Made by a program: the position numbers and the translations under genes
NCBI GenBank assembly: GCA_030550225.1
Contig: JAUQPV010000001.1
Span: 1 to 54,771 of the forward strand
DNA length: 54,771 nt
Reading direction: 5' to 3'
From: Acidobacteriota bacterium
GTDB lineage: Bacteria > Acidobacteriota > HRBIN11
Shown: positions 5,651 to 54,033 of the stretch, piece after piece
Layout of the letters: each line of letters starts with the position of its first letter
Numbering within the stretch: position 1 is the first letter of the stretch
The notes under the pieces: model-generated
Databases searched by the model: none
What the model was told of the DNA's origin: nothing
What the model saw: only the letters and a program-made list of their open reading frames with translations

Positions 5651-5767
5651 GTAGGGCACAAGGCCAATACCCGGATGCTATGCTCTGTGCGCTATGCCCT
5701 TTGCGCTTTGCTCTTTGCCTTCTTCATCTCTCCCCTCAAACCGGGGATGGGTTCGGGGCGCCCACTC

Positions 5768-27080: not shown

Positions 27081-27319
27081 CGTCGCCTCCTCGAATCGAT
27101 GGGAGTGGCCGACGTCGGCCCGGTCAGGGGCCTGAGCCGACGGATGGCCGGAACGGTCCCCCCAGGACGTAGGCGAAATCATTGTATCGGAACCCATGTT
27201 CGATTGCAACCTTTTCCCGAGAGTCCTAAACTTAACCCGAGCTGTAGGCCTGGGGTCGGCGAAGGGCGAAGGGTGAGGAGAGACCGGTCTGTCACGATTC
27301 GCCGTTCGCCATTCTCGGT

Positions 27320-32507: not shown

Positions 32508-32526
32508 CATAGATATTTCGGGAAAG

Positions 32527-33900
<1,374 letters not shown>

Positions 33901-33933
33901 TGTTCGGGATGCGGGATGGGGGGAGGGGTAAGG

Positions 33934-37297: not shown

Positions 37298-40150
37298 CTA
37301 TTCGTGGCACTCCTGACAGACCTTCGGGTCGGGGCGGAGGCGGCCGGCCGCGTGACAGGTCCCGCAGGCCAGGTCTAAGTCCTCGGGACTGGCATGGAGG
37401 CGATGCGGAAACGTGCGTCCGTCGGCCAGCCGGAGGTCGCCCGGCGGTCCGAGGCCGTGACAGTCCTGACAGGCCCGGCGGACTTCCGGGGCGTGGTGGC
37501 AAGGGCCGCAGGCCAGGCCCGGTCGCAGGACCTCGGCGGGTTCCCGGACTTCGTGGGGCCGATGGCAGGTCTCACACGCCAGGGCCTGGACGGTGATGTG
37601 CTTCGCATGGGAAAAGGTATAGCCCCGATAGGGAGCTGTCTGAAGTTCGATCCCCTGGTGACAGTTCATGCAGGAAGACGTATAGGGGACCTGCACCCAA
37701 GCTGGGAGACGGACCGGACGGCCTCGGACGGTCTCTTGGACCTGCCGGTAACTCCAGGCCAACAGGGCCAAGGCATAGTCGGGATTGTGAATCCCGTTAG
37801 CCTGGCGGAGGAATTCAAGGTTCGCCTTTACGTCTTGCAAGACCGGGGCGGCGGGTGCCCAGCGGACGGCCGATGCATAGGCCGTCTCGACGTCCCGCAG
37901 GGCCCGTTCGAGTACGACCTTCCACTGGAGATAGATCTTCCGGTACCGGGTCCCGTGGCAGGCCATACAACTGACTTCGTTGGCCCGCCGGAGGCCACCC
38001 CGGGCCGCGTGTTCGAGGAAGTGACATCCCTCGCAGTCGACGCCCGTCAGGAACATCTTGCTGGGTCGGGGCGGAACGCCCTTCCCGCCGAGGCCGGCGT
38101 ACAGGTCCCGGGTGGGAGCGTGGCCGCTCAAGTGGCATCGCTCGCACGCCGTGGCGGCCGGCGTCAGGGGGAGACGACCATGCTGAATTTCCTGATGGCA
38201 GTCGGTGCACTCGACTTTATGTTCCGTCACGTGCTGATGGTGGAGGTAGGCTTCATCCCCGAACCGGGCCAGTCGTTGCGGCTCGTTGTGACAGGTCAGA
38301 CAGCGCTCCCGGGGGACGGCTCCCTCGCCCCGGATGCTCTTCTGATGGCACCACACGCACTCCATCCCGAAGCGCCGAACGTCGCCGTGGTCGAAGCGGA
38401 CGCCCTGGGCCTCGACGGGTCCGGAGGGCGGAATGTGGCAGAGCTCACATCGGGCGGGTCCGGTGCCCAAGCGTTGGTTCTTGAAGTGGCACAGGAAGCA
38501 CGTCGATTCGGTGACCGTGATGTGAAGGCCCTGGACGATCTGGGAGTGGCAGGACGTACAGCGGAGCCGCATCCCCCGCCGGAGTTCCAGAAGGTGGGGC
38601 GCATGGTCGAAGACGATGTCATGGAAGACTTCCTTTCCTTGAAGCAAACGCCGTTCGTGACACCGCAGGCAACTGGCATCTTCGACCTCGGCCCAGGGGT
38701 TCGGCCCGTAGGTCTGAGTGATGTACTGAGCGGCCATCGAGAGGGCCTCGTACTTCTTCCGGAATTCGGACGTGATCCCCGGAGGGATGTGGCAATCTAC
38801 GCAGGGGACGTTCCGATGGGTCGACGCCTTCCAGGACTGATAGTAGGGTTGCATGACGTGGCAAGAGCCGCAGAAGGCCGGCGTCGAGGTCACCTGCATC
38901 AACAAGAAGACCGTCAACAGGAGACCGCCCAGGCCGACCATCAACCAGAGGGCACCCCATCGGACGCTTCCCCGCTCGTCGGGGGGACCCTCCGGCGGCT
39001 TCTCGCCAGAAAGGCCGGCCCGTCGGATCTCCAAGAGGGCCACCGTCAGGAGGAGGTAAAACCAAAAGGCGATGAGGAGAAACCGTTGGGCCGTCCGATG
39101 ACCCCGCCAACGCTGGACCTCGCTCCGGATCTCACTGGCGATGGAACGGACCTTTCGGGTCTCGGCCTCGATATCCCCGACCTGCAGGCTGTGGACGACC
39201 GGCTGGACGCCGCTCAGGAAGGTCCGAGCCTCTTCCAGCCGCTCCTCCATCGCCCGGGTCGGGACGCCGACGGCCCGGGCCGCCTCGAGGGCCGTCTGGG
39301 CTTCTTGGAGGTCGGCGGTGGCCGTCCTCAGGAGGGTCTGGATCTCGGCGGCGACCTTCATGGGTCGTTGGCCGGTCTCATGGCACTTTCCGCAGACCTC
39401 CACGAGCCGTTCGGGGTTGACCCGGGTGGTCGCATGGTTGTCATGACAGGCCACGCAGGCGGGCAGGCCCCGGCTTAGAAAGGCCCGGGCGTGCGGGCTC
39501 TGGAGGAACATTTCCATGGACCGGGTATGGCACAACCCGCAGACTTCTGAGACTTCCCGAACGCTGGGCGGGGCGGCCCCATGCTTGCCATGGCAAGTCG
39601 CACAGTGAGGCGCCCGGGGATGGCCCGAGGCCAGCGCCTGGAAGTGAACGCTGGCGCGGTACTGGTCCACGACATCGGCCGATAGGCCGTACCGCTCCAT
39701 AAGCTCCTTTTGAGCGTGACACCGACCGCAGGTCTCGGCAACATTCTCTCGATAGACCCGGCTTCGGGGATCTTGGGCCGGTCGGATGTCATGGGTCCCG
39801 TGGCAGTCCGTACAGACGGCGACCCGGGTATCACCTCGGGCCAAGGCCTGCCCATGATACGAACTCTGATAATACAGGTACTGGTCAATAGGTATGTTGA
39901 AGGGCCGCATCCGCTCCGGGTCGCTGTGGCAGTCGGCGCAGAGCCGGGGGATTTGAGACCGCTCGGGCACGCCCCGGAAGTCTTTCCCGTGAGCGGCCTC
40001 CATCTCGAGCGGGCCCTCGACGCCGCCGTGGCAGGCCGTACAGGGCACGCCCTTACGGCTATGGGCATCTTCCGCAAAGCGAGCCTTCAATTCGCTGTGG
40101 CACGTCAGACATGTGGACGCCAGCATGAGGACGAAGACGGCCGCATTCAT
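37298..40150 (-). CDS. giant multihaem cytochrome c with 27 CxxCH: an N-terminal 9-haem domain, a TM hairpin, then a NapC/NirT/NrfH-like segment and further haems (18 CxxCH)
   Basis: The start MNAAVFVLMLASTCLTCH (ATG at 40150) lies just after the cytochrome b stop. The first 355 aa are paralogous to the 11-haem protein (shared blocks GDTRVA.C.DCH, DPRS.VY, VCGLCHT, SPHA.AF). Two TM helices map to about 38891-39085. Next comes TSTPAFCGSCHVMQPYYQSWKASTHRNVPCVDCHIPPG (NapC/NirT-like), then 16 more CxxCH up to the terminal CQECHE. Confidence 0.85.
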   Translation of the reverse strand: MNAAVFVLMLASTCLTCHSELKARFAEDAHSRKGVPCTACHGGVEGPLEMEAAHGKDFRGVPERSQIPRLCADCHSDPERMRPFNIPIDQYLYYQSSYHGQALARGDTRVAVCTDCHGTHDIRPAQDPRSRVYRENVAETCGRCHAQKELMERYGLSADVVDQYRASVHFQALASGHPRAPHCATCHGKHGAAPPSVREVSEVCGLCHTRSMEMFLQSPHARAFLSRGLPACVACHDNHATTRVNPERLVEVCGKCHETGQRPMKVAAEIQTLLRTATADLQEAQTALEAARAVGVPTRAMEERLEEARTFLSGVQPVVHSLQVGDIEAETRKVRSIASEIRSEVQRWRGHRTAQRFLLIAFWFYLLLTVALLEIRRAGLSGEKPPEGPPDERGSVRWGALWLMVGLGGLLLTVFLLMQVTSTPAFCGSCHVMQPYYQSWKASTHRNVPCVDCHIPPGITSEFRKKYEALSMAAQYITQTYGPNPWAEVEDASCLRCHERRLLQGKEVFHDIVFDHAPHLLELRRGMRLRCTSCHSQIVQGLHITVTESTCFLCHFKNQRLGTGPARCELCHIPPSGPVEAQGVRFDHGDVRRFGMECVWCHQKSIRGEGAVPRERCLTCHNEPQRLARFGDEAYLHHQHVTEHKVECTDCHQEIQHGRLPLTPAATACERCHLSGHAPTRDLYAGLGGKGVPPRPSKMFLTGVDCEGCHFLEHAARGGLRRANEVSCMACHGTRYRKIYLQWKVVLERALRDVETAYASAVRWAPAAPVLQDVKANLEFLRQANGIHNPDYALALLAWSYRQVQETVRGRPVRLPAWVQVPYTSSCMNCHQGIELQTAPYRGYTFSHAKHITVQALACETCHRPHEVREPAEVLRPGLACGPCHHAPEVRRACQDCHGLGPPGDLRLADGRTFPHRLHASPEDLDLACGTCHAAGRLRPDPKVCQECHE

Positions 40151-40161
40151 GCCGACCTCGT

Positions 40162-41136
40162 TCAATAATAACTTCCGACCCACGCCAGGGCGATATACCC
40201 CAGCGCCGCCATCAAGGCCCACCACCGGAGGGTTCCCCGCCGCCGATCGTCCAGCCAGGGCAAAAGGGTCCAAAAGGCCAGTAACGCCAGAAAACCCCAT
40301 CCCAGGACCCACCCCGGCGTCCGAGGTTCCAGCCACTGAAGAGGTCGAAAATACCAGGGTGCCCGGGTCACGGGTGGCGGATGCAGGACGTCGGCGACTT
40401 CTGGATGGAGAGGCGGGGCCAAGACGGCCAGGGTCGTCAGGCCGCCGACCCACAGCAGAAGGGCGCTTAGACCCCAGTGGACCCAATCCGGGTAGACCGG
40501 CCGACTCAGACTGGGCCGCCGGAGTCCGGACCGCAGGGAGACATACACATGAGTAAAGGTCAATGCGATGAAAAGCCCGGGCAGGGCCGAAACGTGCAGG
40601 AAATAAAAGCGCGTCAAGGTATCCTGCGTGACGTCGGTCCCGCCGACGAGGAAGGAAAAGAGGGCCCCGAGCCCCGGGAGTCGACGGATCTCTTCCAAGG
40701 CCCGAACCGTCGTCCAGAGGGCCGTCTGGCTCCAAGGCAGGAGGTGACCCGTCACGTCCGAGAGGACCAGCAGGACCAGAAGACCCGTCCCGACGAGCCA
40801 TTGACCCCGAAGGCGCAAGTAGTCCCGCTGGACTAAGATCCCCAGACCATGAAGAACGGCAAGCCCCATCAAGACATAGGCCCCCCAGTGATGGACCGAG
40901 TGGATGACCTCCCCCAAGAAGACCCGATAGCGGATGAGGTTCACGCTCTCGAAGGCCCGTTCGACCGTCGGCCGGTAGTAAAAAGCCAGCAAAGCCCCCG
41001 TGAAGGCCTGGACACCGAAGCCCAGCAGGAGGAGAAGACCCGGGAGGTGATGCCATCCGAAGGCCCACCGGGTCGTCCGCCACGAACGCGGTATCCAGCT
41101 CCGGAAATCGCCGCCTTTCCGCTGCTTGAAAGACAT
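40162..41136 (-). CDS. cytochrome b (bc/b6f-type), copy 2, divergent
   Basis: Bis-His haem ligand pairs VHHWGAYVLMGLAVLH and FLHVSALPGLFIALTFTH; GHLLPWSQ. The Qo-site PEWY position reads APWYFRP. Length 324 aa. Confidence 0.85.
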   Translation of the reverse strand: MSFKQRKGGDFRSWIPRSWRTTRWAFGWHHLPGLLLLLGFGVQAFTGALLAFYYRPTVERAFESVNLIRYRVFLGEVIHSVHHWGAYVLMGLAVLHGLGILVQRDYLRLRGQWLVGTGLLVLLVLSDVTGHLLPWSQTALWTTVRALEEIRRLPGLGALFSFLVGGTDVTQDTLTRFYFLHVSALPGLFIALTFTHVYVSLRSGLRRPSLSRPVYPDWVHWGLSALLLWVGGLTTLAVLAPPLHPEVADVLHPPPVTRAPWYFRPLQWLEPRTPGWVLGWGFLALLAFWTLLPWLDDRRRGTLRWWALMAALGYIALAWVGSYY

Positions 41137-41223
41137 CGACCCTACTCCATCACTTCGTCGTCACTCCGTCATTTCGTTCCTCCATCACTCCGTTACTTTG
41201 TCGTCAGCCCATCACCTCCTTCC

Positions 41224-41646
41224 CTAAAACCGGATGTATACCTGGCCCTGGACGACCTCAACCGCATATCGCGGGAGAGCGCTGGGCGGCGGACCCTGCA
41301 GGACGTTGCCGCTGAGGTCGAACACGCCCCCGTGGCAGGGGCACAGGATGACGTCCCGTTGGGGCGTCCAGCTCACGCCGCACCGCCGGTGGGTGCATAG
41401 GGCCGAAAAGGCCAGCCACTGGTGTTCATTCCGCCGGATCAGCAGGACGGGTCGGTCGGCGACGAAGACGACCCGACTGCTCCCCGGGGCCAACATGTCG
41501 GCCGGCCCGACCCGATAGCCTGAGGCGCTCGACCCGACATTCTCCCGGGGGGGCCGTAAGAACCGCCACAGGGCGTAAAGCCCGGAACCTACCCACAGCG
41601 CTCCCACCAGTCGAACCAGCCACTCCAGGAAGAGCCGCCGCCTCAT
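41224..41646 (-). CDS. Rieske [2Fe-2S] protein, copy 2
   Basis: CTHRRCGV...CPCHGGVFD cluster-binding boxes. N-terminal MRRRLFLEW anchor, Tat-like. The ATG overlaps the stop of the upstream 11-haem gene (ATGA at 41643-41646). Confidence 0.85.
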   Translation of the reverse strand: MRRRLFLEWLVRLVGALWVGSGLYALWRFLRPPRENVGSSASGYRVGPADMLAPGSSRVVFVADRPVLLIRRNEHQWLAFSALCTHRRCGVSWTPQRDVILCPCHGGVFDLSGNVLQGPPPSALPRYAVEVVQGQVYIRF

Positions 41647-43115
41647 GGCTTCAATCTCTTGTCCCGGGACCGGGCCTCGATCTGCCGGATCTTGAGGTAC
41701 AGGGCGATGACCAAGAGCGTGATCCACAGCGTGGCGAAAGCAAAGCCCTTCCGGCGGAAGTCAAATTCGGCCAAGGCCCGCTGACCTGCCGTTCGGGCTT
41801 GCTCGGCGGTCTGAACGGCCGGCTCGACGACCTTCTGGACCTCGGCGGGGTCCGACGTGTGGACGACCGTCCGGGCCTTCAAGTAGGCGTTGTGGACATC
41901 CCGGAGTTGAAACCAGGCGTCGGCCACGTCCATGCCCTTCTGTTCGGCGGCCGTCAGGAGGCGCCGGGCCTCCTCTTCCAGTATGACCAGACGTCGAATC
42001 GTTTCATACATCATACGGGCCACTTGGGTGCCCTTGTCGTCCATCGAGTGGCACTTTCGGCACATGAAGACAGGGGCCTCGGGCTGGAGCTGGTCGAGGG
42101 ACGTCGTCGGGACCTCGTGATTACCGTGGCAGGCTTCGCACTGCGGGAGGCCCTTCTTTTCGAAGGCGGCCGCGTGGGGACTCTTGCTGAAGTACTCGGC
42201 ATTCAGGGTATGACAGAGGCCGCACACGTGGGAGAGCGTCTGCACGCCAGGCGGCATGGCGCCGTGGTTGCCGTGGCAGTCGTTGCAGGCCGGGGCCCCC
42301 GTGTCGTGTTTCTCCAGGAGGGCCCGGCCGTGGGCCGTCGAAGCGTAGAGGTCGTATTGATTCGTCGGAATCCCGTAAGGCTTCATGTATGCAGGGTCGC
42401 TGTGGCACCGGGCGCACATGATGGGCACGTTGACGGCGTACACGCTGGACCGGGGGTCCTTCGGGGGATAGATGGTATGGGCCGTGTGACAGTCCGAACA
42501 GGTGGCGACCCGGGTGTCACCCTGCTGGAGCCGCTGACCGTGACGGCTCGTCCAATACTTCTCCAGTTGGTCCGTCGGGAGGGCCGGATTAAACTTCCGC
42601 ATGTAGGCAGGGTCGGCATGACATCGAGCGCACAAGAAGACCTCCCGGGTCGGGTAGGTCGGCGACTGGGGGTCCCGGCTGGAGCGAATCTCATGGACGT
42701 CGTGACAACTGACACAGGTCGCCACGTCGGCCTTTCCGTGCACGCTGGTCTCAAAGCGTTGGAACTGGATGGTATCGATCGAACTGGCCCACTGGGCCAT
42801 CCGGGATTCGTTCGCGTGGCAGGCGTTGCAGGTCTGCGTGATCTGAGCGCCCTTGGGAACGCCGATATACCCCTTCTTGGGGTCCATCGCCGCGTCCATA
42901 TCGGCCTGGGTCGGGTCGCCGCCGTGACAGCCGGCGCAGGAGATGCCTTTCTGGAAATGAACGTCATTGACATACTTCTGGGAAGGGGTGTCTTCCAAGA
43001 GCTCCCGATGACAGGTCCGACACTGGTCCTGCGTCTGCGCCTGCCCGGTTTGCAGGCCGCCGCCTAAGACCAACGCCAAGACCCCGACGATGACCCAAAT
43101 GCCAAAGCGCTGCAT
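41643..43115 (-). CDS. 11-CxxCH multihaem cytochrome c with a C-terminal TM anchor
   Basis: MQRFGIWVIVGVLALVLGGG signal peptide. Eleven CxxCH: CRTCH, CAGCH, CNACH, CVSCH, CARCH x2, CSDCH, CNDCH, CGLCH, CEACH, CRKCH. A coiled-coil-like segment is followed by FAFATLWITLLVIALYL. The ORF extension to 43274 runs through the repeat element. Confidence 0.85.
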   Translation of the reverse strand: MQRFGIWVIVGVLALVLGGGLQTGQAQTQDQCRTCHRELLEDTPSQKYVNDVHFQKGISCAGCHGGDPTQADMDAAMDPKKGYIGVPKGAQITQTCNACHANESRMAQWASSIDTIQFQRFETSVHGKADVATCVSCHDVHEIRSSRDPQSPTYPTREVFLCARCHADPAYMRKFNPALPTDQLEKYWTSRHGQRLQQGDTRVATCSDCHTAHTIYPPKDPRSSVYAVNVPIMCARCHSDPAYMKPYGIPTNQYDLYASTAHGRALLEKHDTGAPACNDCHGNHGAMPPGVQTLSHVCGLCHTLNAEYFSKSPHAAAFEKKGLPQCEACHGNHEVPTTSLDQLQPEAPVFMCRKCHSMDDKGTQVARMMYETIRRLVILEEEARRLLTAAEQKGMDVADAWFQLRDVHNAYLKARTVVHTSDPAEVQKVVEPAVQTAEQARTAGQRALAEFDFRRKGFAFATLWITLLVIALYLKIRQIEARSRDKRLKP

Positions 43116-43300
43116 GATTTCGACCCTTCGAGCAATCGGTGTTGGGGGCTGGGTGTTGGGTCCAAGGAGACTACAGACCCCAGACCGAACGGAGTCGTCG
43201 GAATAGCCCGTCTCAGGACGAAGCGAACCTGACCCCCGGAATAGGTCGGTGGTCAGTCGTCCGTGGTCTTTCATACCAAATACCTACCACCCGACATCTC
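43116..43300 (-). repeat. About 180-nt structured repeat element, copy 2 (inverted relative to copy 1)
   Basis: The reverse complement of 43137-43300 aligns with 37118-37295 over the arms and core (see copy 1). A left flank gatttcgacccttcgagcaatcggtg is shared with 50081-50118. Confidence 0.8.
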
Positions 43301-43386
43301 CATCCAGTATCGTGACGCCGTGATGAAGTCCACCCCAGGCCGTCGCCGGAGCGAACGGCCCGGGATCGGCGTCGTCACGACGCCTC

Positions 43387-44460
43387 CTATGACCGGAAGC
43401 CCCATAGCGTCATCGTAGCAATATAGACAAGCACGATCCATCCGATGAGATGAGCGATTTCATTCCGATACTTGCCGAGCCGCCCCTCCCAGAAGGGCAC
43501 CGTCATCCACAAGAGGCCGCCGAGCGTGAAAAACAAGACACCCACGAACTCCCCCTCCAGGAAGAAGACCTTCGCCGGCAGGATCTTCAGGGTCTGATAC
43601 ATAAACAGAAAGTACCACTCGGGCTTGATCCCTGGCGGCGCCGGCGCAAAGGGGTCGGCCTTCGGACCCAACTCCCACGGATAAAAGACGGCCAAAAAGG
43701 CCAGGACATTCAAAACGATCAGCCACAAGAGGAGGTCCCGGAGCAAGAAGTTCGGAAAGAAAGGCATCCGCCGCTTCTCCGACTCGGGTCGCCCGGCCCA
43801 GGACTCGGGTTCGGCGATGCCCTGCCGCTGGATGAACAGCAGATGGAGGGTCAGCAGGATGGTGAAGATGCCCGGCAGGAGCGCTACATGCAGGCCGAAA
43901 AAGCGGGCCAGGGTCGCCCCGCTGACCTCCTCACCGCCCCGGAGGATTCGGACTAATTCATGACCGATGGCCGGGACCGAGCCGACAATTTCGGTCCCGA
44001 CCCGTGTCGCAAAGAAAGCCAACTGGTTCCAGGGCAGGAGGTACCCCGTGAAGCCGAAAAACAGAGCCAGCACCAGGAGGAGAAAGCCGCTGACCCACGT
44101 GAGCTCCCGGGGCTTTCGATAGGCTCGCGTGAAGTACACGCTAAACATGTGAATGAAGACCGTCAGGATCATCAGGTTGGCGCCCCAACTGTGAATGGAC
44201 CGGATCAGCCATCCGAACCGGACCTGGGACATGATGAAGCGTACGCTCTCGTAGGATGCGTCCTCGCCGACCCGGTAGTACATCAAGAGCAGGATGCCCG
44301 TCGTCACTTGGACCAAAAAAAGGAAGAGGCTGACGCCACCAAAATAGTACCAAATGGTGTGCCGGTGCATGGGCACGTACTTGTGGGACATGAATTCGAC
44401 GAGGGCCTGGAGTTGATATCGCTCGTCCAGCCACCGATAGATGCGCCGCCACATAGTCAC
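43387..44460 (-). CDS. cytochrome b (bc/b6f-type, fused N- and C-terminal parts), copy 1
   Basis: [20 protein letters not shown] and [19 protein letters not shown] haem ligand pairs; GYLLPWNQ; canonical Qo motif PEWYFLF. Length 357 aa. Confidence 0.9.
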
Positions 44461-44475
44461 TACCCCACCGCTACA

Positions 44476-44721
<246 letters not shown>

Positions 44722-44724
44722 CCA

Positions 44725-45174
44725 TTAGGCCTCCCGCGTGACGTATACGTCGTCCCCCCGAACGACGACCTTCAGGGGCTCCAGGGGCCGCGGCGGGGGA
44801 CCGGCGATGTTGATACCGTTTAGGTCAAAACGCCCGTTGTGACAGGCGCACCAGATCAACTTCCAGTCCGGCCGGTACTGGACGATGCAGGCCAGATGCG
44901 TACAGGTCGCTGTAAAGGCCTTGAAGTCCCCAAACTCCGTCCGAATGAGGAGTACAGGCTCGTTCCCAAACCGGACGACCCGCCCCGAGTTGGGCTCAAA
45001 GTCGTCGACCTTCCCAACCTTGACGGCCGACAGCCGCGCCTCGGGGACCCGGGGCGGGATGATGTACTGAATAATGGGATATAAGACGGACGAAATCCAA
45101 CCGACGATACCCAGGCCGAGAAGCCAGTCGATGAAGCTTCGTCGGGTCACACCCCTCATCGGCCACCCCCTCAA
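44725..45174 (-). CDS. Rieske [2Fe-2S] protein, copy 1 (Tat signal)
   Basis: Twin-arginine TRRSFIDWLLGLG; cluster boxes CTHLACIV...CACHNGRFD. Confidence 0.88.
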   Translation of the reverse strand: MRGWPMRGVTRRSFIDWLLGLGIVGWISSVLYPIIQYIIPPRVPEARLSAVKVGKVDDFEPNSGRVVRFGNEPVLLIRTEFGDFKAFTATCTHLACIVQYRPDWKLIWCACHNGRFDLNGINIAGPPPRPLEPLKVVVRGDDVYVTREA

Positions 45175-45346
45175 ATATACCGCCGAGCGAATACGGAATA
45201 GGGTCCCGGGTGCCAGGTCCAGAGAAAAGGGGACTACAGATTACAAACGATGGACCCCACACCTGTAGGGTCTCAGGGACGAGGCCACCTGGTCCAACGA
45301 GACAAGGCCCCGGGTCCCTATCCTCCCGGGGCCGGCACCTGAAGTG

Positions 45347-45718
45347 TCACTTCTTACCCTTCAGGGAGAACAGCCACTCGGCCAGGGTCTTGAGTTCCGC
45401 CTCCGTCCCCTTAAAGAGGACCTTATGCTTTTTGCCGTCCTTTTCGACCTTCTTCAGGAGGTAGTCCTGAATCCACTGGGCGCTCTCGACCTTCGAACCG
45501 ACGTCCGACAGGTCCGTCACCTTCGCTTCTGCTTCTTCTCCCTCAGCGGCCTTTTTCGCCTCGATGCCCTCGGCCTTGATGCTGTGGCACATCGTGCACT
45601 TGTACTTGGTGAAGAGCTCCTTGCCCGAGGCGGCCTTCTCCTGGGCCGTCGCCGCTCCCGTCAGGCCGACGACCAGGACGGCCGCCCATGCCATCCATGC
45701 CCACGATGCGATCCGCAT
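45347..45718 (-). CDS. monohaem class I cytochrome c (123 aa), tandem copy A
   Basis: Signal peptide MRIASWAWMAWAAVLVVGLTGAATAQ and a single CTMCH. The mature part differs from copy B at one residue by my reading (QDYLL versus QDWLL). Confidence 0.85.
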   Translation of the reverse strand: MRIASWAWMAWAAVLVVGLTGAATAQEKAASGKELFTKYKCTMCHSIKAEGIEAKKAAEGEEAEAKVTDLSDVGSKVESAQWIQDYLLKKVEKDGKKHKVLFKGTEAELKTLAEWLFSLKGKK

Positions 45719-45849
45719 AAGTGAACCTCCCTTTGCTCTATATCATTTTTAAGGAATCTCTCAGACCCCCAGGAGTCATCCCGGCATCCTCCTCGCGGGC
45801 CGGACATGCCCTGAAAACGGGTGGAGCTGGGACCCGGGGACCTGAAGCG

Positions 45850-46221
45850 TCACTTCTTACCCTTCAGGGAGAACAGCCACTCGGCCAGGGTCTTGAGTTC
45901 CGCCTCCGTCCCCTTGAAGAGGACCTTATGCTTTTTGCCGTCCTTTTCGACCTTCTTCAGGAGCCAATCCTGAATCCACTGGGCGCTCTCGACCTTCGAA
46001 CCGACGTCCGACAGGTCCGTCACCTTCGCTTCTGCTTCCTCTCCTTCCGCGGCCTTCTTGGCTTCGATGCCCTCGGCCTTGATGCTGTGGCACATCGTGC
46101 ACTTGTACTTGGTGAAGAGTTCCTTGCCTGAAGCGGCCTTCTCCTGGGCCGTCGCCACACCGGCCAGGCCGACGACCAGGAGAGCCGCCCATAACATCCA
46201 TAACCATGATGCCATTCGCAT
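45850..46221 (-). CDS. monohaem class I cytochrome c (123 aa), tandem copy B
   Basis: MRMASWLWMLWAALLVVGLAGVATAQ signal peptide, CTMCH, 503-bp register with copy A. The ORF extension to 46509 runs through the repeat arms. Confidence 0.85.
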   Translation of the reverse strand: MRMASWLWMLWAALLVVGLAGVATAQEKAASGKELFTKYKCTMCHSIKAEGIEAKKAAEGEEAEAKVTDLSDVGSKVESAQWIQDWLLKKVEKDGKKHKVLFKGTEAELKTLAEWLFSLKGKK

Positions 46222-46240
46222 GGTGGCCCTCCTTCTTCCA

Positions 46241-46389
46241 GGATGCAAGGCGCAAGATGCAGGATAGGGACTTTGGATATCGATGAATCCCGGGCGTGGT
46301 ATCCGACATCCGGGCACCTCTCGTCGAAGCCTGGCTTTAGTCCCCTCCCCTCCTGCATCCTGTACCCTGCATCCCGCATCGTGCATCCC
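46241..46389. repeat. Inverted repeat with tandem-heptamer arms (GATGCAG/GATGCAA type)
   Basis: Left arm 46241-46269 is ggatgcaaggcgcaagatgcaggataggg. Right arm 46349-46389 is cctcctgcatcctgtaccctgcatcccgcatcgtgcatccc. It lies between the porin gene and cytochrome c copy B. Confidence 0.8.
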
Positions 46390-46538
46390 GAAATAAAAGA
46401 GCGGCCCCTTCCCGCACAGCCGTGCAGGAAGGGGGCGGGTAGTGGGGGGGGTGCTGGATTCCTTGCCTTCCCGACGACTCCGACGTCTACTCCATCGTCC
46501 CTCGACCAATGCTTCATTTCAACGGGAGTAACGGAGCA

Positions 46539-48869
46539 CTAAAACGTGTAGCTGACCTTCATGTAGAACACGGTGACGTTATAGCCCTTCAGTTGAGTCC
46601 CCATAAGGGTCGCCTCGTTGAACGCACCGGCCGCCGTGACCGGGATATACGCGAAGCCGACGGTACTCAGGTCGTCGTCGTAGCGGAACTTCTCCCAAAG
46701 GGCACCGAGCGTGTACGTCAGACCCCGCGTCACGCTATATCGGAGGCTGGCGTTCAAGACGTGGAACCGGACGTCATCGACCTGGTCGAAACTCACCGGC
46801 TCAAAGGGATTCGCATCGTTGGCCGATGTCCCGACAGGGCTCACGAAGGCGACGGCCCCATCGGACTTCGAGTACGTATAGGACACGTCCGCCGTCAGCT
46901 TCCGCGGCTTCAGCAGAACGGCCTGCAGGCCCCCGCCCAGGCTGTGGAGCTTGTCCTTCTCGTCGGACGTCCAGTTGCTGAGCGAATCTAGACCGGTTTC
47001 CCGCACATAGGGATCGCCGACACCGTTCCGAGCCCACTGCCGCACCTTCTGGCTGTTTTTGTACCCTTCGAAGCTATAGAAGGCAAACAGGCTGACTTGC
47101 TCCGTCAGCGCATAGTCAGCGTCGACGGAATAGACGGTCCGACGGTCGTTCAAGAGTCCAAAGGGGGAATCCCGGAAATTGTCCTTCCCGTAGACGACCG
47201 ATCCCGAGAGAGTCAGCTTGTCCGTAGGAGCCACCGAGACCATCCACAAGACGCTGTCCCGGTCCCGATTCGCCTGGTCGTATTTCCGCAGGAAGGGGAG
47301 TTGAGGCGGGTTCCTGACCTCCTCCTCACCCAGATGAGAGGCGATGAAGGGGATCATAAAGTCGTATTCGCCCCGCCGCCGGGAACGTTCGTAGGCGGCC
47401 CGGAGAGTCAACCAGGACAGGGGTGTCGTGTCGAGGGCAACCTTGAAGATGTTGTCGTCCTGCTCGGCGACCTCCCGGAAGACCCGGTCGGTCCGGATAA
47501 ACCGGTAGCCAAGCGTGAGCGTCGTCGATTTCCAGACGTCCAGACCCAGGTCTACCGAAAAGCTATTCTTCTTAAAGCCGGTCGGGATGTTGGCCGCCGG
47601 TTCGGGCTCCCAGACGGCGTCCACCCAGACGCGGCCCGGGAAGTGAATCTGTTCCGACTTGTTGTCCCAATGGTAGAAGTTGTACTTGAGTTTTAGGCGG
47701 GTGAATCGCAGGGGCTTGGACGTCAGCAACAGCTGAAGCTGGGTAACGTCAACCTTCAGGTCCGCCTGCTGGATGGGCAGACTGGCCTTATCCCAGGCGT
47801 CGAAGGGGACAGGCTCGCCGGGGACCCTGCTCGGGGCACCCTTGCGGATGGCCCGGTTGGTCGTGTAAGGGACTAAGGGGTCGTTCTGGGTCAGGCGCCC
47901 GAAGGAGGCCGTGGCCGAAAGCCGACTCTCGAGGGGGAGGTCCATCAGGACACCGCTGAATGAGAAGTAGTGCGCCCGGTTGTTGGGATACAGGTCGATT
48001 AGACCCGAGGCCGGCCCGGCCAGATAGGACTGGCGATAAGCCGTCGCCGTCGTGCTGTCCGTCGCCCGGTAGGGGTTCGCCCACGTCAGGGTGTCGATGT
48101 TGTTCGCGAAGTCCGAGAAATAGTAGCTGACGTTCACGAAGAGGGGCTTGCGGCCGTATTCGGCGGCGAGACGCACCTGGGTCGTGTCGTAGTCGATAGG
48201 CTCCGGGATTTCGACCACGTTGCCGAAGCCAAAGTTACCACTAAAGGGTCGTGTGCCCTCCCGTTTCTCGAAGCGGGTCTCCGCCGTCAGCCGGAAGGGG
48301 TCCCAGGCGACGACCTTCAGGTCGGCCCGGAAGGTCTTCCGAAAGAGGGCTTCATCGAAGGTCGCGGCCCCGGGTAGGTAGCCCAGGATGCGGCTGACCA
48401 GGTCCGTCGGCGACCGGGACGACTGCAAGTCACTTTGAAGCCGCGGACTCAACTGAAGATTACCAGTCCCGATGCCCGAAAACAGAGACTGGGCGTCAAA
48501 GGCAAACCGGTGGGGGATCTTGTCATAGGTCAGATCCAGCTTGAACCATCCGAACCGCTGACTGGTCAGTTGGAGGAGTTGGTCGTCCCGGGCGATATTC
48601 TTCGCCAGAGCCTCCAAGATGTAGGCACCCCGGCGGTACCGGACCATTACGTCGCCCCACGAGCCTGGCGGAAAGGCTCGGTACTCGGTGAACTTCGCCG
48701 AGTCCCGGAGATGGCTCACGGCGGCGGCTGTAACTTCCGTCTGGACCGTCACCGTGGGCTTGACTTCTTCTTGGAACTTCTCCTTCTCTTGGGCCCACCC
48801 ATAGGACACGATGGACGATAAGAGCAGGATTGTCCCCCCCATGACAAGAATTCTCGCACGTTCCGACAT
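46539..48869 (-). CDS. MtrB/PioB-family outer-membrane beta-barrel (decahaem-associated porin)
   Basis: Signal peptide. N-terminal KFTEYRAF...LDLTYDKIPHRF resembles the MtrB/PioB signature (KFGEY..., YDxIPH). The body is long, with alternating beta-strand character, and ends in an aromatic residue (...YMKVSYTF). It lies immediately downstream of a decahaem gene (12-nt gap). GGAGGGAGG RBS. Confidence 0.8.
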   Translation of the reverse strand: MSERARILVMGGTILLLSSIVSYGWAQEKEKFQEEVKPTVTVQTEVTAAAVSHLRDSAKFTEYRAFPPGSWGDVMVRYRRGAYILEALAKNIARDDQLLQLTSQRFGWFKLDLTYDKIPHRFAFDAQSLFSGIGTGNLQLSPRLQSDLQSSRSPTDLVSRILGYLPGAATFDEALFRKTFRADLKVVAWDPFRLTAETRFEKREGTRPFSGNFGFGNVVEIPEPIDYDTTQVRLAAEYGRKPLFVNVSYYFSDFANNIDTLTWANPYRATDSTTATAYRQSYLAGPASGLIDLYPNNRAHYFSFSGVLMDLPLESRLSATASFGRLTQNDPLVPYTTNRAIRKGAPSRVPGEPVPFDAWDKASLPIQQADLKVDVTQLQLLLTSKPLRFTRLKLKYNFYHWDNKSEQIHFPGRVWVDAVWEPEPAANIPTGFKKNSFSVDLGLDVWKSTTLTLGYRFIRTDRVFREVAEQDDNIFKVALDTTPLSWLTLRAAYERSRRRGEYDFMIPFIASHLGEEEVRNPPQLPFLRKYDQANRDRDSVLWMVSVAPTDKLTLSGSVVYGKDNFRDSPFGLLNDRRTVYSVDADYALTEQVSLFAFYSFEGYKNSQKVRQWARNGVGDPYVRETGLDSLSNWTSDEKDKLHSLGGGLQAVLLKPRKLTADVSYTYSKSDGAVAFVSPVGTSANDANPFEPVSFDQVDDVRFHVLNASLRYSVTRGLTYTLGALWEKFRYDDDLSTVGFAYIPVTAAGAFNEATLMGTQLKGYNVTVFYMKVSYTF

Positions 48870-48881
48870 GGCCTCCCTCCT

Positions 48882-49868
48882 TCAGCGGGCTAATATTTTG
48901 CCGGATGGATGGTTGCTTCCGTGGATTTGGGAATGGCAGTTCAGACAGTTCCGGTAGAAGGCTCGGTTGTTCAACGCTTGATACGCCGAGAGTCCCTGAG
49001 CGGCCTGCTGAGGATTCAAAGCATACAGCCTACCCGGGTGGCCGCTATTGGAATGACAACTCTGGCACAGGAAGGGCGTCTTCGACACCAAAAGCTTGGT
49101 ATGGGACGATCCATGCGGTGTGTGGCAAGTCCCACAGCTTTCCGTCGCCGGGGGGTGCTCCCACAGGAAGGGACCCCGCTTTTCCGCATGACACTCGTAG
49201 CACTTTTCATTGATCGAATTGGCGGCGATTAGCTTGTCGGTCACCGTACCGTGGGGGTTGTGACAGCTCGTGCACTCCATCCGGCCTTCCCGAACGGGAT
49301 GGTGAGAATTCTTGAGAATCTCGGCCTTCACCTGCTGATGACACGTCGTGCAGGTCTCGACCTCCGTCGGCTTGGCCAGATTCTTCGGATAGCCGCTATG
49401 GACGCTGTGGCAGTTCGTGCAGGCCAAATTCCGACTTTCGTGAGGACTCCCATGCCAGAGGGCGACCTTCGTCGTCATCGTCTCATGACAGCTCAGACAG
49501 ACAGCGTTCCGCTCCTCGACCGAGAGCTTCGACTTCGGACCCAGGACCCGAATCGAGACGTTGGCCGATCCCGTCGGAGCGGCGGAGCTGTCCCCATTCC
49601 CGGGGACTTCGCCGCCTTGCTCCTTCACGTGCGCCGCCCCGGGGCCGTGGCAGGTCTCGCACCCGAATTTGGCCTCCGGCGTGCGCTTGTCTTCCTTCAC
49701 GCCGTGGGTGGTCTGGATGTAACTCTGGTAGTACGGTGCGTGACACTCGCGACACGCCTGCGTGCCCACGTAGCCCTTCGCTGGGGGAGCTTCCTGGGCT
49801 GCCGGAACCGACGCCGTGAGGAGGAACCCGACCAGACATCCGATGAGGATGAAAATCTTTGGCTTCAT
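48882..49868 (-). CDS. MtrA/DmsE/PioA/MtoA-family periplasmic decahaem cytochrome c
   Basis: Signal peptide MKPKIFILIGCLVGFLLTASVPAAQ. Exactly 10 CxxCH in about 330 aa: CRECH, CETCH, CLSCH, CTNCH, CTTCH, CTSCH, CYECH, CGTCH, CQSCH, CLNCH. GGAGGGGG lies before the ATG at 49868; an alternative ATG is at 49883. Confidence 0.85.
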   Translation of the reverse strand: MKPKIFILIGCLVGFLLTASVPAAQEAPPAKGYVGTQACRECHAPYYQSYIQTTHGVKEDKRTPEAKFGCETCHGPGAAHVKEQGGEVPGNGDSSAAPTGSANVSIRVLGPKSKLSVEERNAVCLSCHETMTTKVALWHGSPHESRNLACTNCHSVHSGYPKNLAKPTEVETCTTCHQQVKAEILKNSHHPVREGRMECTSCHNPHGTVTDKLIAANSINEKCYECHAEKRGPFLWEHPPATESCGTCHTPHGSSHTKLLVSKTPFLCQSCHSNSGHPGRLYALNPQQAAQGLSAYQALNNRAFYRNCLNCHSQIHGSNHPSGKILAR

Positions 49869-50109
49869 CACCGCCCCCTCCATTCCCTAAAATCGGATGG
49901 TCTCTGTATCCTACAATTTCCGTTCCAAACCCCCTGAAAGTCGGGGTGCCGGGCCGTAGGAAGCGCATCGGGTGGAAATAGGCAGGTCGGCCGATCATGG
50001 CTCATAGCGGATGGCTTAGAGTCCTATGAGCTATGACCTATGAGTGCATCCGAGCCGTTCGGTTCGTGAAAACCCGCATGGATTCGGCTTTTCCGACCCT
50101 TCGAAAAAT

Positions 50110-50200
50110 CGGTGCTCGGTGCTGGGTGTTGGGTGTTGGGTGTTGGGTTCTTGAAAAAGGGACCTAACACCTAACACCGAGCACCCAGCACCCAACACCC
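50110..50200. repeat. Tight hairpin with GGGTGTT-heptamer arms; the G-rich arm is a canonical G-quadruplex motif
   Basis: Left arm 50110-50150 is cGGTGCTCGGTGCTGGGTGTTGGGTGTTGGGTGTTGGGTTC. Right arm 50161-50200 is gacctaacacctaacaccgagcacccagcacccaacaccc. The loop is 10 nt. GGGTGTTGGGTGTTGGGTGTTGGG lies at about 50124-50147. Confidence 0.85.
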
Positions 50201-50471
50201 ATTCTGTCTGAAAAATCGTGCTTCCCGGCCCATGGAAAAGGCCGTCCCGACGCCATTCTCCCGAACCGAACGGCCTTACTAAGCTATCTGCCTCCGTCCC
50301 TTGCCTGCGCGAAATCACCCATAGGTGGGTGATTTCACCCGCGGTCCTACGGAAGGGGCGAGCCAATTGCTTTGTTGTGATCGGAGTGGACGCCACGGGC
50401 CGACGGAGACGTCGGCCCGCAGGCCGGAGGCCTGTGCCACCGCTTTATTGCGACAGACTTACTGCAAAACG

Positions 50472-50804
50472 TTACTGACGCCGCAGGAAGGCTACGAGAT
50501 CTCGAATTTCCTGTTCGGTCAAGGAGATGCGGGGCATTGGCGGAAACCCCGGGTTGCGGGGCCGGCGTCCGGTCTGGCGGTAGACGATCTCAGGGTCGGT
50601 GAGCCACAGTTCCAGCATAGTGGCGTCATAGCGGCGGCCGACGCCCCGCAGGTCAGGACCTGCCTTGGGGCCTTGGCCGATCGTGTGACAGTAGGGGCAT
50701 CCCCGCTCCTGAAAGACCCGTGCCCCCCGTCGGGGGTCGCCCGAGGCACATCCGAAGCCCAGGACGACGATCAGACAACCCAGGCTCCAAGCCCGTCGCC
50801 CCAT
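50472..50804 (-). CDS. monohaem cytochrome c, probable lipoprotein
   Basis: MGRRAWSLGCLIVVLGFGCASG has a lipobox-like LGFGC. It has one CPYCH and a distal PPMP Met-ligand region. The ORF extension to 50855 reads through an octamer-repeat arm. Confidence 0.75.
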   Translation of the reverse strand: MGRRAWSLGCLIVVLGFGCASGDPRRGARVFQERGCPYCHTIGQGPKAGPDLRGVGRRYDATMLELWLTDPEIVYRQTGRRPRNPGFPPMPRISLTEQEIRDLVAFLRRQ

Positions 50805-50816
50805 TTGGTTCCTCAG

Positions 50817-50977
50817 TTTGGGAATTCGGCATCCGGCAGTTCGGGAGTTCGGCAATTCGGCAATTTGGGAATTCAGCCCTGCGGGGGTTTGATTCGGCCG
50901 TGGCCAGATATACTTGCCTTGACCGTAGGTCCGGCTGATCTCTACCCCTCTCTATCCCGGACTGCCGAACTCCCGAA
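50817..50977. repeat. Inverted repeat with tandem-octamer arms (TTCGGCAG/CTGCCGAA type)
   Basis: Left arm 50817-50876 is tttgggaattcggcatccggcagttcgggagttcggcaattcggcaatttgggaattcag. The right arm 50956-50977 (cccggactgccgaactcccgaa) is shorter. It lies in the divergent cytochrome c / hydrogenase spacer. Confidence 0.75.
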
Positions 50978-51086
50978 AAGAGCATAAGTCCCAAAATTGA
51001 GACTTCATCCGGCCCTAAAGTCCCACCTTTTGGACGGCCGCCATCCCAATGTTTCATCTGGGGCCAAGCCCTTTCCGGTTAAGGGC

Positions 51087-51102
51087 GGGCACAAAAATTG
51101 TA
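51087..51102 (+). promoter_or_regulatory. Candidate sigma-54 (-24/-12) promoter upstream of the hydrogenase small subunit
   Basis: GGGCAC-AAAAA-TTGTA has the consensus spacing of TGGCAC-N5-TTGCW. The -12 GC is GT here. It lies 37 nt upstream of the ATG at 51139. Confidence 0.3.
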
Positions 51103-51138
51103 ACCGATCTCCTATGACTCCCCTCCCTGAGGTGGTCT

Positions 51139-52287: not shown

Positions 52288-52299
52288 AGGAGGGGGATC

Positions 52300-54015: not shown

Positions 54016-54033
54016 CGGAAAGGGAGGACGGCC

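Follow-up and report, generated by a model that had tools for sequence, protein, structure and literature searches.

How electrons pass between the quinone pool and a conduit through the outer membrane, and whether energy is conserved at that step, is settled in only a few models, namely CymA in Shewanella and ImcH, CbcL and CbcBA in Geobacter. The question is raised again by a contig of an Acidobacteriota bacterium of the HRBIN11 lineage (JAUQPV010000001.1, assembly GCA_030550225.1), of which positions 1 to 54,771, hereafter called the window, were analysed. Its minus strand carries an array of genes for an MtrAB-type porin-cytochrome conduit, monohaem cytochromes c and two Rieske/cytochrome b modules, each accompanied by a very large multihaem cytochrome. 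Do these genes together encode a path from the cell surface to the quinone pool? We analysed the 54.7 kb by open reading frame (ORF) listing, start-codon inspection, motif counting and profile searches. Related loci retrieved for comparison bear L-numbers, and proteins taken from a representative library bear P-numbers. We hold with moderate confidence that the array encodes an envelope-spanning electron route coupled to the menaquinone pool, a grading that applies to the architecture of the pathway and not to its direction. The features discussed are collected in Table 1.

The ORF listing and the motifs bore out the ten minus-strand genes, and the order, that an earlier note on this DNA had given: an MtrA-like decahaem cytochrome, an MtrB-like barrel, two monohaem cytochromes c, Rieske-1, cytochrome b-1, an 11-haem cytochrome, Rieske-2, cytochrome b-2 and a 27-haem cytochrome. 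The count of 50 CxxCH motifs in that note is exact (10 + 1 + 1 + 11 + 27). All ten genes are present, but an eleventh, upstream of mtrA (50472-50804), had been overlooked. As it adds a monohaem cytochrome c, the total for the array is 51 CxxCH. Profiles TIGR03508 and TIGR03509 and those of the cytochrome b, Rieske and NapC/NirT domains all found their match among these genes.

The conduit was identified with little ambiguity. The MtrA-like protein scored 274.2 bits with TIGR03508 (cut-off 192.2) and matched MtrA of the Mtr complex (PDB 6r2q_A) with an E-value of 3e-70; its gene has an alternative ATG start at 49883. The MtrB-like protein scored 334.3 bits with PF11854 (cut-off 23) and 259.7 bits with TIGR03509 (cut-off 240.05), and was matched by sequence to 6r2q_B at an E-value of 1.5e-17. 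An AlphaFold2 model of this protein, built on 25 homologues, was made of nearly all strands, with a predicted local distance difference test score (pLDDT) of 82.6 and a predicted template-modelling score (pTM) of 0.77. When this model was searched with Foldseek, 6r2q_B came out on top (E-value 2.8e-42, template-modelling (TM) score 0.87 normalised to the target), and the next matches were TonB-dependent receptors, with a TM score of ~0.4. The 776-residue protein thus both scores as MtrB/PioB and models as a beta-barrel. The mtrA gene ends 12 nucleotides (nt) ahead of mtrB, and the same pairing is found in most related MtrB loci. A six-frame scan of the window returned as multihaem ORFs only MtrA, the 11-haem and 27-haem proteins, and a 13-haem CbcL-like protein (33916-36003). 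The MtrC/OmcA model TIGR03507 gave only sub-threshold partial matches in the window, so that the lack of an MtrC/OmcA-like surface cytochrome, already remarked upon, holds for these 54.7 kb, and the conduit does not amount to a complete MtrCAB. The nearest species representative is the Acidobacteria metagenome-assembled genome (MAG) SKYB104. A scan of genome contigs gave one locus, in this MAG, with an MtrB 86% identical to that of the window, on a contig that stops just past mtrB. An exact look-up of the window MtrB gave no record, although the protein is present in the homology database (P0121).

Inner-membrane coupling would fall to the two Rieske/cytochrome b modules. Both Rieske proteins have the cluster motifs and twin-arginine N-termini, and both cytochromes b keep the helix-B/helix-D His pairs. 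In module 1, Rieske-1 was 92% identical to its counterpart in locus L007 and 50-64% identical to Rieske proteins of other such triplets. In cytochrome b-1, a b6-like N-terminal half is followed in the same polypeptide by a half resembling subunit IV; four His haem ligands and a PEWY Qo motif are present, and among proteins of solved structure cytochrome b6 is the closest (215.8 bits). A b6f-type complex with haem ci was ruled out, as a Tyr aligns with the b6 Cys in cytochrome b-1. Both cytochromes b of the window are single fused polypeptides (355 and 324 residues), not a split b6 and subunit IV.

No gene for a monohaem cytochrome c1 was found in the array; after each cytochrome b comes a gene with 11 or 27 CxxCH motifs, and neither module is therefore a bc1 complex in the strict sense. 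The 11-haem cytochrome occupying this place in module 1 had no match among solved structures in a sequence search. It belongs to a family of 3960 scored homologues, mostly 45-57% identical at full length. In every context examined, including L001, L002, L004 and L007 and comprising an ENA contig, two JGI contigs and an Ignavibacteriales genome, the 11-haem gene comes after those of a Rieske protein (~145 residues) and a fused cytochrome b (~355-360 residues), often with overlapping stop and start codons. The junction between cytochrome b and the multihaem gene is a 4-nt stop/start overlap in L001, L004 and L094. The recurrence of triplets with overlapping or near-abutting genes, the C-terminal anchors and a fusion protein described below (P0358) all support the earlier proposal that a multihaem protein stands in place of cytochrome c1. 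By their predicted layout, the multihaem subunits share the topology of cytochrome c1, with a periplasmic haem domain and a C-terminal anchor.

Module 2 is of another type. The ATG of Rieske-2 overlaps the stop codon of the 11-haem gene; Rieske-2 shares 40% identity with Rieske-1, and cytochrome b-2 shares 35% with cytochrome b-1. Cytochrome b-2 retains all four His ligands and has APWY, a sequence devoid of acidic residues, as its Qo motif. When 1.84 billion representative proteins were searched exhaustively, only 8 matched cytochrome b-2 at E <= 1e-30. The best of them (49% identity) also has APWY, and the others have PPWY, PAWY or AVWY. With 35-40% identity between the modules, and each closer to counterparts in other genomes, an origin of module 2 as a recent duplicate of module 1 was ruled out. 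The two parallel bc-type modules of the earlier note are then not equivalents but two distinct conserved types. An Arg at the second helix-B His position was seen in the first cytochrome b of L012 (7424-8530) and in P0356, P0357, P0360, P0361 and P0366; cytochrome b-2 of the window keeps the His. In the part of the clade that bears this Arg, haem bH may be altered or lost.

The composition of module 2 is suggested by its 27-haem cytochrome, whose gene lies 11 nt after that of cytochrome b-2. The N-terminal part of this protein is 36% identical to residues 120-478 of the 11-haem protein, that is, to its last nine haems and anchor, and 42-44% identical to free-standing 9-haem proteins (382-400 residues) of L013, L094 and L095. 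The C-terminal part is 49-57% identical to free-standing 18-haem proteins of 552-594 residues. A NapC-like unit was indeed embedded in it, as had been claimed: PF03264 scored 46.1 bits (against 24.1) over residues 407-539, with CGSCHVM directly after the membrane helix (residues 396-414), and residues 406-498 matched NrfH (2j7a_C) at an E-value of 1.6e-10. A CXXCHXM motif has been described for a NapC/NirT-family cytochrome (PMC13390432); at the first haem it reads CGSCHVM in the window, and CGSCHIM or CGTCHVM in the free-standing homologues. The cut-offs of the NrfH/NapC/TorC equivalog models were not reached (TIGR03153, 59.1 vs 134.2 bits; TIGR02161, 20.8 vs 310.6; TIGR02162, 34.6 vs 478.2). 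Judged by these scores, the 18-haem NrfH/NapC-type part is a distinct subfamily.

The unfused state is the commonest, as 119 of the best 120 matches measured 543-628 residues, and the single full-length match was 95% identical. Fused copies of 950 or 951 residues, 95-100% identical, were nevertheless present in independent assemblies, among them Logan SRR27730023 (L011), where the gene order agrees with that of the window, and "bacterium HR11" (GBC83849.1). Because such copies exist while the other best matches are unfused, we consider the 27-haem fusion to be real and confined to this lineage. At the joint, two predicted membrane helices are connected by an in-frame cytoplasmic loop of ~20 residues. 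In L013, L094 and L095, the 9-haem and 18-haem genes are separate and overlap by 4 nt. A unit of four genes, encoding a Rieske protein, a PPWY-type cytochrome b, a 9-haem and an 18-haem protein, was recognised in L094 (Polarisedimenticolia), L095 and L012 (Blastocatellia); the L012 version has a ~100-nt gap, and in L013 the gene upstream of the pair is cut by the contig end. In L012, L094 and the window, the neighbours of this unit include a PEWY-type triplet and a CbcL-like protein.

A second fusion was found in the representative library. In P0358 (692 residues), a cytochrome b of the PPWY type is continuous with an anchored 9-haem cytochrome, which shares 46% identity with the N-terminal part of the 27-haem protein; this is independent support for the multihaem protein being a subunit of the Rieske/cytochrome b core. 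Considered jointly, the two fusions speak for a single complex of the Rieske protein, cytochrome b, 9-haem and 18-haem proteins. A more ambitious version of this proposal, which we put forward tentatively and regard as rather doubtful, is that the Rieske protein, the PPWY/APWY cytochrome b, the 9-haem and the 18-haem NrfH-type proteins make up a single respiratory complex in which a Q-cycle engine and a second, non-electrogenic quinone site lie on one chain of ~27 haems, and which, together with the PEWY 11-haem module, would be where extracellular electron exchange is coupled to energy conservation, in Acidobacteriota as in several further phyla. If so, these bacteria could carry out proton-motive electron export, or import driven by the proton-motive force, beyond the reach of CymA-type systems.

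Whether conduit and modules belong together was approached by scanning metagenomes with an alignment of MtrB homologues; 80 loci were fetched and searched with the window proteins. Among those with enough flanking sequence, a Rieske/cytochrome b module was present at both loci with 83-84% MtrB identity, at none of the 8 with 38-57%, and at 5 of the 9 with 25-32%. MtrAB is thus found beside Rieske-cytochrome b-multihaem modules in close relatives and again in the most distant group. L007, L015 and L016 (83-84%) have the order mtrA-mtrB-cytc-Rieske-cytb-11-haem. L069, L077 and L085 are co-linear, with mtrA, mtrB, Rieske, cytochrome b and 9-haem genes, followed in L069 and L077 by a CbcL-like gene, and L053 has a divergent arrangement that also includes an 18-haem-type protein. 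Recurrence in distant MtrB lineages, with differing gene orders, points to a functional link between MtrAB and the modules. At positions 1-3613 of L012, a Blastocatellia MAG contig, a different putative conduit was observed, made of a multihaem cytochrome, a 702-residue protein without Pfam match (possibly a porin) and a 5-haem cytochrome. It lies together with both bc-type modules, two monohaem cytochromes and a CbcL-like protein.

The motifs of the Rieske proteins bear on the quinone used. Both (CHNGRF and CHGGVF) are without the Ser and Tyr hydrogen-bond donors of high-potential Rieske proteins, and loss of these donors lowers the potential by about 130 and 65 mV, respectively (PMC12954380). 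Low-potential clusters suited to menaquinol are therefore expected. By comparison, the Rieske proteins of the anammox bacterium Kuenenia stuttgartiensis retain the Ser, and one of them also the Tyr; their titrations gave +303 and +335 mV (PMC12954380).

Three small cytochromes c could connect conduit and modules. That encoded by the eleventh gene has a signal peptide ending in a conserved Cys, making it a possible lipoprotein, and a PPMP motif for the Met ligand; it is 86% identical to the product of the L007 gene upstream of mtrA. The two others, copies A and B, are 94% identical in amino acids and 92.9% in nucleotides over 382 nt, an identity limited to the coding region. The copy number of this gene is two in L014 and one in L007. 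In the alignment, a His (GKKHK) stands where the homologues of L012 and L085 have the Met ligand (GKGKMP, GKKPMP), so that bis-His ligation is predicted for copies A and B. A sequence search of the PDB (E <= 1) with the monohaem cytochromes gave weak c551/c552 matches only, none of them significant, the presence of an MtoD entry in the searched PDB being unconfirmed.

Table 1. Features of the window (aa, amino acids; positions are those of the window).
Feature	Position	Strand	Description
Monohaem class-I cytochrome c, eleventh array gene	50472-50804	-	110 aa; PF00034 46 bits
MtrA/DmsE-family periplasmic decahaem cytochrome	48882-49868	-	328 aa; 10 CxxCH; signal peptide
MtrB/PioB-family outer-membrane beta-barrel	46539-48869	-	776 aa
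Terminator-like hairpin	46405-46434	-	13-bp stem, 9 G-C pairs, then T-run; just downstream of mtrB
Monohaem cytochrome c copy A	45850-46221	-	123 aa; signal peptide; PF00034 30.1 bits
Monohaem cytochrome c copy B	45347-45718	-	123 aa; tandem duplicate of copy A
Rieske-1	44725-45159	-	144 aa; PF00355; twin-arginine TRRSF; motifs CTHLAC...CACHNGRF
Hairpin element between Rieske-1 and cytochrome b-1	44455-44724	-	arms of 7-nt tandem repeats
Cytochrome b-1	43387-44454	-	355 aa; PF00033 183.8 bits and PF00032
11-haem cytochrome, c subunit of module 1	41643-43115	-	490 aa; signal peptide; C-terminal membrane anchor
Rieske-2	41224-41646	-	140 aa; PF00355 57.2 bits; motifs CTHRRC...CPCHGGVF; N-terminus MRRRLF
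Cytochrome b-2	40162-41136	-	324 aa; PF00033 88.8 bits; divergent
27-haem cytochrome	37298-40150	-	950 aa; 27 CxxCH; 11 nt after cytochrome b-2
27-haem N-terminal part (residues 1-377)	39020-40150	-	nine haems, coiled region, membrane helix
27-haem C-terminal part (residues 396-950)	37298-38965	-	second membrane helix, NrfH/NapC-type unit (CGSCHVM), 18 haems
CbcL-like protein	33916-36003	+	695 aa; 13 CxxCH and putative b561-type membrane domain; convergent with array, not a member
HAMP histidine kinase and sigma-54-dependent response regulator	31107-33900	+	directly upstream of CbcL-like gene
Membrane-bound [NiFe] uptake-type hydrogenase	51139-54738	+	small subunit, large subunit, cytochrome b; divergent from array
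Repeat-hairpin arm pairs	44472-44517/44680-44725; 50107-50148/50162-50203; 37119-37148/37268-37298		
Further repeat-hairpin arm pairs	46241-46264/46351-46388; 4478-4504/4567-4593		
Period-7/8 arrays	near 5677, 17055, 20712, 20822, 29909, 33885, 36008, 43138, 50814		

Both sides of the array are occupied by genes of related interest. The CbcL-like protein has five C-terminal helices, scored 21.7 bits with PF01292, under the cut-off of 30.1, and has counterparts in the related clusters L012, L094, L069, L077 and L053. The sigma-54 response regulator gene upstream of it lies at 32419-33900, and similar regulator pairs flank clusters L001 and L009. Adjacency of the hydrogenase was also found in L006, L007, L014, L015 and L016, and a HypE-like gene is near the array too. 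The rest of the window is housekeeping: leuA, leuCD, gltB, dnaG, priA, ribD, a type-V fructose-1,6-bisphosphate aldolase/phosphatase and RNase G.

We propose that these parts would work as follows. In the outer membrane, the MtrB-type barrel would sheathe the MtrA-type decahaem wire. Three small monohaem cytochromes c, one of the His/Met type and the two tandem copies predicted to be bis-His, would act as shuttles in the periplasm. In the inner membrane, two different Rieske/cytochrome b complexes would couple to the menaquinone pool. Module 1 (PEWY type) would have the C-terminally anchored 11-haem cytochrome at the position of cytochrome c1; module 2 (APWY/PPWY type) would have a 9-haem anchored subunit, here fused to its usual neighbour, a putative 18-haem quinol dehydrogenase of the NrfH/NapC type. 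Because the 9-haem and 18-haem parts are fused, the Q-cycle engine and the second quinone site would share one 27-haem wire. The CbcL-like cytochrome and the neighbouring uptake hydrogenase would feed or drain the menaquinone pool. At least two transcription units would be involved, mtrAB ending at a conserved hairpin. What the analysis shows directly is the identity of the genes, the folds, the signals of topology, the anatomy of the fusion and the recurrence of the gene order; we infer the physical complexes among the array proteins, menaquinone as the substrate, and the flow of electrons between conduit, shuttles, multihaem subunits, Rieske clusters and quinone pool.

In which direction would electrons flow? 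The earlier note was right that this is unreadable from the sequence, and the route is probably reversible. We slightly favour uptake, with Fe(II) or some other donor outside the cell, in which case the bc modules would run backwards under the proton-motive force and reduce menaquinone. This slight preference is due to the lack of a surface cytochrome, the monohaem class-I shuttles, such as also occur in the mto cluster of Sideroxydans, the genes and growth medium of a close relative, and the reading given to a similar cluster of Zixibacteria RBG-1 (see below). The relative is "bacterium HR11", with whose proteins GBC83856.1 and GBC83849.1 the MtrB and 27-haem proteins of the window cluster at >=90% identity. 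A type-V fructose-1,6-bisphosphate aldolase/phosphatase, an enzyme typical of thermophilic and autotrophic prokaryotes, is encoded in the window at 25971-27209 on the minus strand (PF01950, 523.6 bits), and fits the lifestyle proposed for HR11. That bacterium was recovered from a 65-70 C bioreactor seeded with subsurface geothermal mat, which simulated Fe(II)-bearing geothermal groundwater, and was placed in "Fischerbacteria" (Kato et al. 2018, PMC5877337). It has a Cyc2 homologue and Calvin-cycle genes, it grew in Fe(II)-containing medium, and it was proposed to be an iron-oxidising autotroph (PMC5877337). The array is described neither by Kato et al. 2018 (PMC5877337) nor in the "Fischerbacteria" literature searched.

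Several facts pull the other way. With four quinone-pool modules, the locus is reminiscent of metal reducers and their quinol oxidases tuned to different potentials; outward transfer is the best-known role of CbcL and NapC/NirT-type proteins (PMC6295460), and the adjacent uptake hydrogenase would suit H2-driven metal reduction. That the system serves outward respiration is in our estimate rather unlikely. Electrons from H2 or organic compounds would pass through menaquinone to the Rieske/cytochrome b modules, the NrfH-like unit and the CbcL-like protein, then to the monohaem cytochromes and MtrAB, and finally to soluble or chelated Fe(III), Mn(IV), humics or a partner cell. Each module would be suited to a different acceptor potential, and the Q-cycle would make export proton-motive. 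Quinol oxidation is, after all, the forward reaction of every Rieske/cytochrome b complex, and the presence of four quinone-pool modules is reminiscent of the several inner-membrane cytochromes of Geobacter (PMC2825233, PMC5877670). Hydrogenase adjacency is conserved in all close relatives, homologous triplets occur among CbcL-like and NapC/NirT-type cytochromes in Ignavibacteriales and in other anaerobe-type contexts, and the low-potential Rieske motifs are compatible with an anaerobic menaquinol chain. However, no surface multihaem cytochrome, normally needed for solid acceptors, is present in the 54.7 kb, monohaem class-I cytochromes are atypical as shuttles of metal reducers, and the HR11 lineage, which encodes Cyc2 and Calvin-cycle genes, was kept in a bioreactor of Fe(II)-bearing groundwater.

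The coupled route, in whichever direction, supposes that the genes of the array act together, and here gene spacing and transcription have to be considered. The ATGA overlap between the 11-haem and Rieske-2 genes and the 11-nt gap before the 27-haem gene were both recovered as first described, but not the general impression of short gaps or overlaps. Taken from the best start codons, the junctions measure, in array order, 12, 317, 131, 187, 270, 271, -4, 87 and 11 nt, so that 5 of the 9 lie between 131 and 317 nt. In L007, the Rieske gene is separated from that of cytochrome b by 15 nt, and the latter from the multihaem gene by 30 nt. As these junctions are short, and those of the window carry inserted hairpin elements, the array was tight at first and the long gaps are secondary. 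The hairpin located after mtrB is of a different kind. Its position is kept in L006, L007 and L014, where, on an alignment read by eye, the stem sequence varies and the G+C-rich hairpin form is retained. It looks like a real terminator or attenuator, and mtrAB is probably a transcription unit of its own. The genes are clustered on the minus strand as had been stated, but this conserved hairpin at the end of mtrAB makes it doubtful that they are a single array in the sense of one operon.

This separation of mtrAB from the other genes by the hairpin, and the breaking up of the rest by long gaps, weigh against the coupled route, together with several results of the locus comparison. L007, with an MtrB 83% identical, has no module 2 at its locus, so that the conduit does not require module 2. 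A Rieske/cytochrome b neighbour is missing from many MtrAB loci, including L009, L010 and all eight loci of the 38-57% group, and many triplets have no conduit within 10 kb (L001, L004, L095). Menaquinone as the substrate, moreover, is deduced from the Rieske motifs and general knowledge of the phylum. The same observations on the hairpin, on L007 and on the solitary loci could be accounted for by an island of genes brought together by co-regulation or chance, in which MtrAB and the upstream cytochrome c work independently and the Rieske/cytochrome b modules are general quinol:cytochrome c oxidoreductases serving terminal reductases or oxidases, periplasmic or membrane-bound, that are encoded elsewhere. 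We judge this unlikely. MtrAB and triplet recur together at 25-32% MtrB identity in differing orders and orientations (divergent in L053, co-linear in L069, L077 and L085), L012 joins both modules, monohaem cytochromes and a CbcL-like protein to another putative conduit, and the array contains no canonical cytochrome c1 or other acceptor gene. As for the 27-haem ORF or the arrangement being artefacts of misassembly or sequencing error, a view to which the far commoner unfused state might lend some colour, misassembly of this ORF is ruled out by the independent fused copies, and with the L011 gene order and an in-frame linker between the two predicted helices besides, the idea is scarcely credible.

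The hairpin elements were seen elsewhere in the window as well. They are intergenic, their arms consist of imperfect 7-nt (some 8-nt) tandem repeats, and they are inserted between genes that are tightly spaced in L007. The copy between Rieske-1 and cytochrome b-1 (44472-44517 with 44680-44725) has 36-nt arms that are 92% complementary, and its predicted RNA fold has an energy of -116 kcal/mol (z -5.2). An exact 18-nt core, TCGAAGGGTCGGAAAAGC, is common to two copies (44578-44595 and 50087-50104), with 0.11 occurrences expected by chance. These heptamer-repeat hairpins are reminiscent of the STRR repeats of cyanobacteria. The G+C content is 58-61% over mtrAB, the monohaem cytochromes and Rieske-1 (44001-52000) and 63-68% in most of the window, a difference that could be due to the inserted repeats, which are richer in A+T, or to a foreign origin of the segment. 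Promoter scans of the window were of little help: the sigma-70 scan was uninformative (1 site vs 2.2 expected), and the 18 sites found with the sigma-54 consensus were not above chance (14.4 expected). Two weak sigma-54-like sites, on which we do not rely, are TGGAAC-N5-TTGTA just upstream of mtrA (49912-49927, minus strand) and GGGCAC-N5-TTGTA just upstream of the divergent hydrogenase small-subunit gene (51087-51102, plus strand).

The Rieske-cytochrome b-multihaem triplets constitute a very large family, to go by the 3960 homologues of the 11-haem subunit, spread over Acidobacteriota, Ignavibacteriales and Bacteroidota and as yet without biochemical description. What the window adds is the presence of two distinct module types side by side with MtrAB, a 27-haem fusion that bears on the composition of the complex, the recognition of the APWY/PPWY-type four-gene unit as a conserved entity in Acidobacteriota, and a thermophilic setting adjoining a hydrogenase. 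A compact thermophilic locus with a natural fusion is a template for structure prediction with cofactors, heterologous expression and cryo-electron microscopy. It would also bear on the question of Fe(II) oxidation versus metal respiration by the thermophilic, Acidobacteriota-related bacteria of hot springs.

The earlier note had not recognised the combined arrangement as a described system. This overstated its novelty, since there are precedents in Zixibacteria RBG-1 and in Geobacter: the cluster is a variant of a kind noted before, and the combination of MtrAB with such genes has already been reported. The Mtr cluster of RBG-1 contains MtrA, MtrB, two monohaem and several multihaem cytochromes and cytochrome b/Rieske genes, and was read as possibly serving Fe(II) oxidation (Castelle et al. 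2013, PMC3903129). It is like the window in its MtrAB, two monohaem cytochromes, multihaem cytochromes and PetAB complex, and in having no extracellular cytochrome. Compared by description only (a genome figure), it differs in having one PetAB complex instead of two distinct modules. No 27-haem fusion or hydrogenase neighbour is reported there, and the organism is of another phylum and from mesophilic aquifer sediment.

The second precedent is the ext cluster of Geobacter sulfurreducens, also named cbc6. In extHIJKL-extMNOPQS (GSU2940-2930), a porin-cytochrome conduit has as direct neighbours a Rieske protein, a b6-type cytochrome b and cytochromes with 10 and 12 haems (Butler et al. 2010, Jahan et al. 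2018; PMC2825233, PMC5877670), and the Rieske/cytochrome b/multihaem cluster was proposed as a quinol-oxidising link to the periplasm for metal reduction (PMC2825233, PMC5877670). There the porin is ExtI and not an MtrB/PioB protein, cytochrome b is split (ExtP and ExtQ) whereas it is fused in the window, the multihaem genes precede the Rieske gene, and the cluster is implicated in selenite and tellurite reduction. Identity with the ExtP equivalog (NF040969, cut-off 290 bits) was ruled out for both cytochrome b-1 (217.8 bits) and cytochrome b-2 (128.6 bits).

An MtrAB-type conduit without surface cytochrome is shared with MtoAB-MtoD-ImoA(CymA) of Sideroxydans lithotrophicus ES-1 and PioABC of Rhodopseudomonas palustris. 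The mto system uses monohaem shuttles (the bis-His MtoD, and PmcA) and a NapC/NirT-family CXXCHXM cytochrome, and ES-1 uses ubiquinone (PMC13390432). Ubiquinone is the quinone of Rhodopseudomonas palustris as well. The likeness of copies A and B to MtoD is restricted to the predicted bis-His ligation and role. Unlike the window, the Mto and Pio systems have no Rieske/cytochrome b genes, and their NapC-type unit is a free tetrahaem protein and not part of a 27-haem one. MtrA and MtrB of Shewanella are the closest solved relatives of the conduit parts. Shewanella, however, has MtrC, of which there is none in the window, tetrahaem CymA alone oxidises quinol there, and its carriers are tetrahaem proteins (STC, FccA).

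For the modules themselves, the nearest parallels lie elsewhere. In Kuenenia stuttgartiensis, a Rieske/cytochrome b core is likewise combined with multihaem c-type subunits instead of cytochrome c1, and the best solved match of Rieske-1 is a Kuenenia Rieske domain (9rk4). The Kuenenia complexes are modelled with haem cN, for which cytochrome b-1 of the window is without the Cys, and they have NAD(P) oxidoreductase-like extra subunits. An HAO-like extra subunit is also part of them. Acidithiobacillus ferrooxidans has two bc1 complexes for uphill and downhill electron flow, one of which is thought to run in reverse. Its pet operon has been described (PMC10654088). The likeness is that a proposed iron oxidiser again carries two Rieske/cytochrome b complexes; those of Acidithiobacillus, however, are closely paralogous and of the canonical bc1 kind, with cytochrome c1, whereas the modules of the window are 35-40% identical, belong to two types and are built on multihaem subunits.

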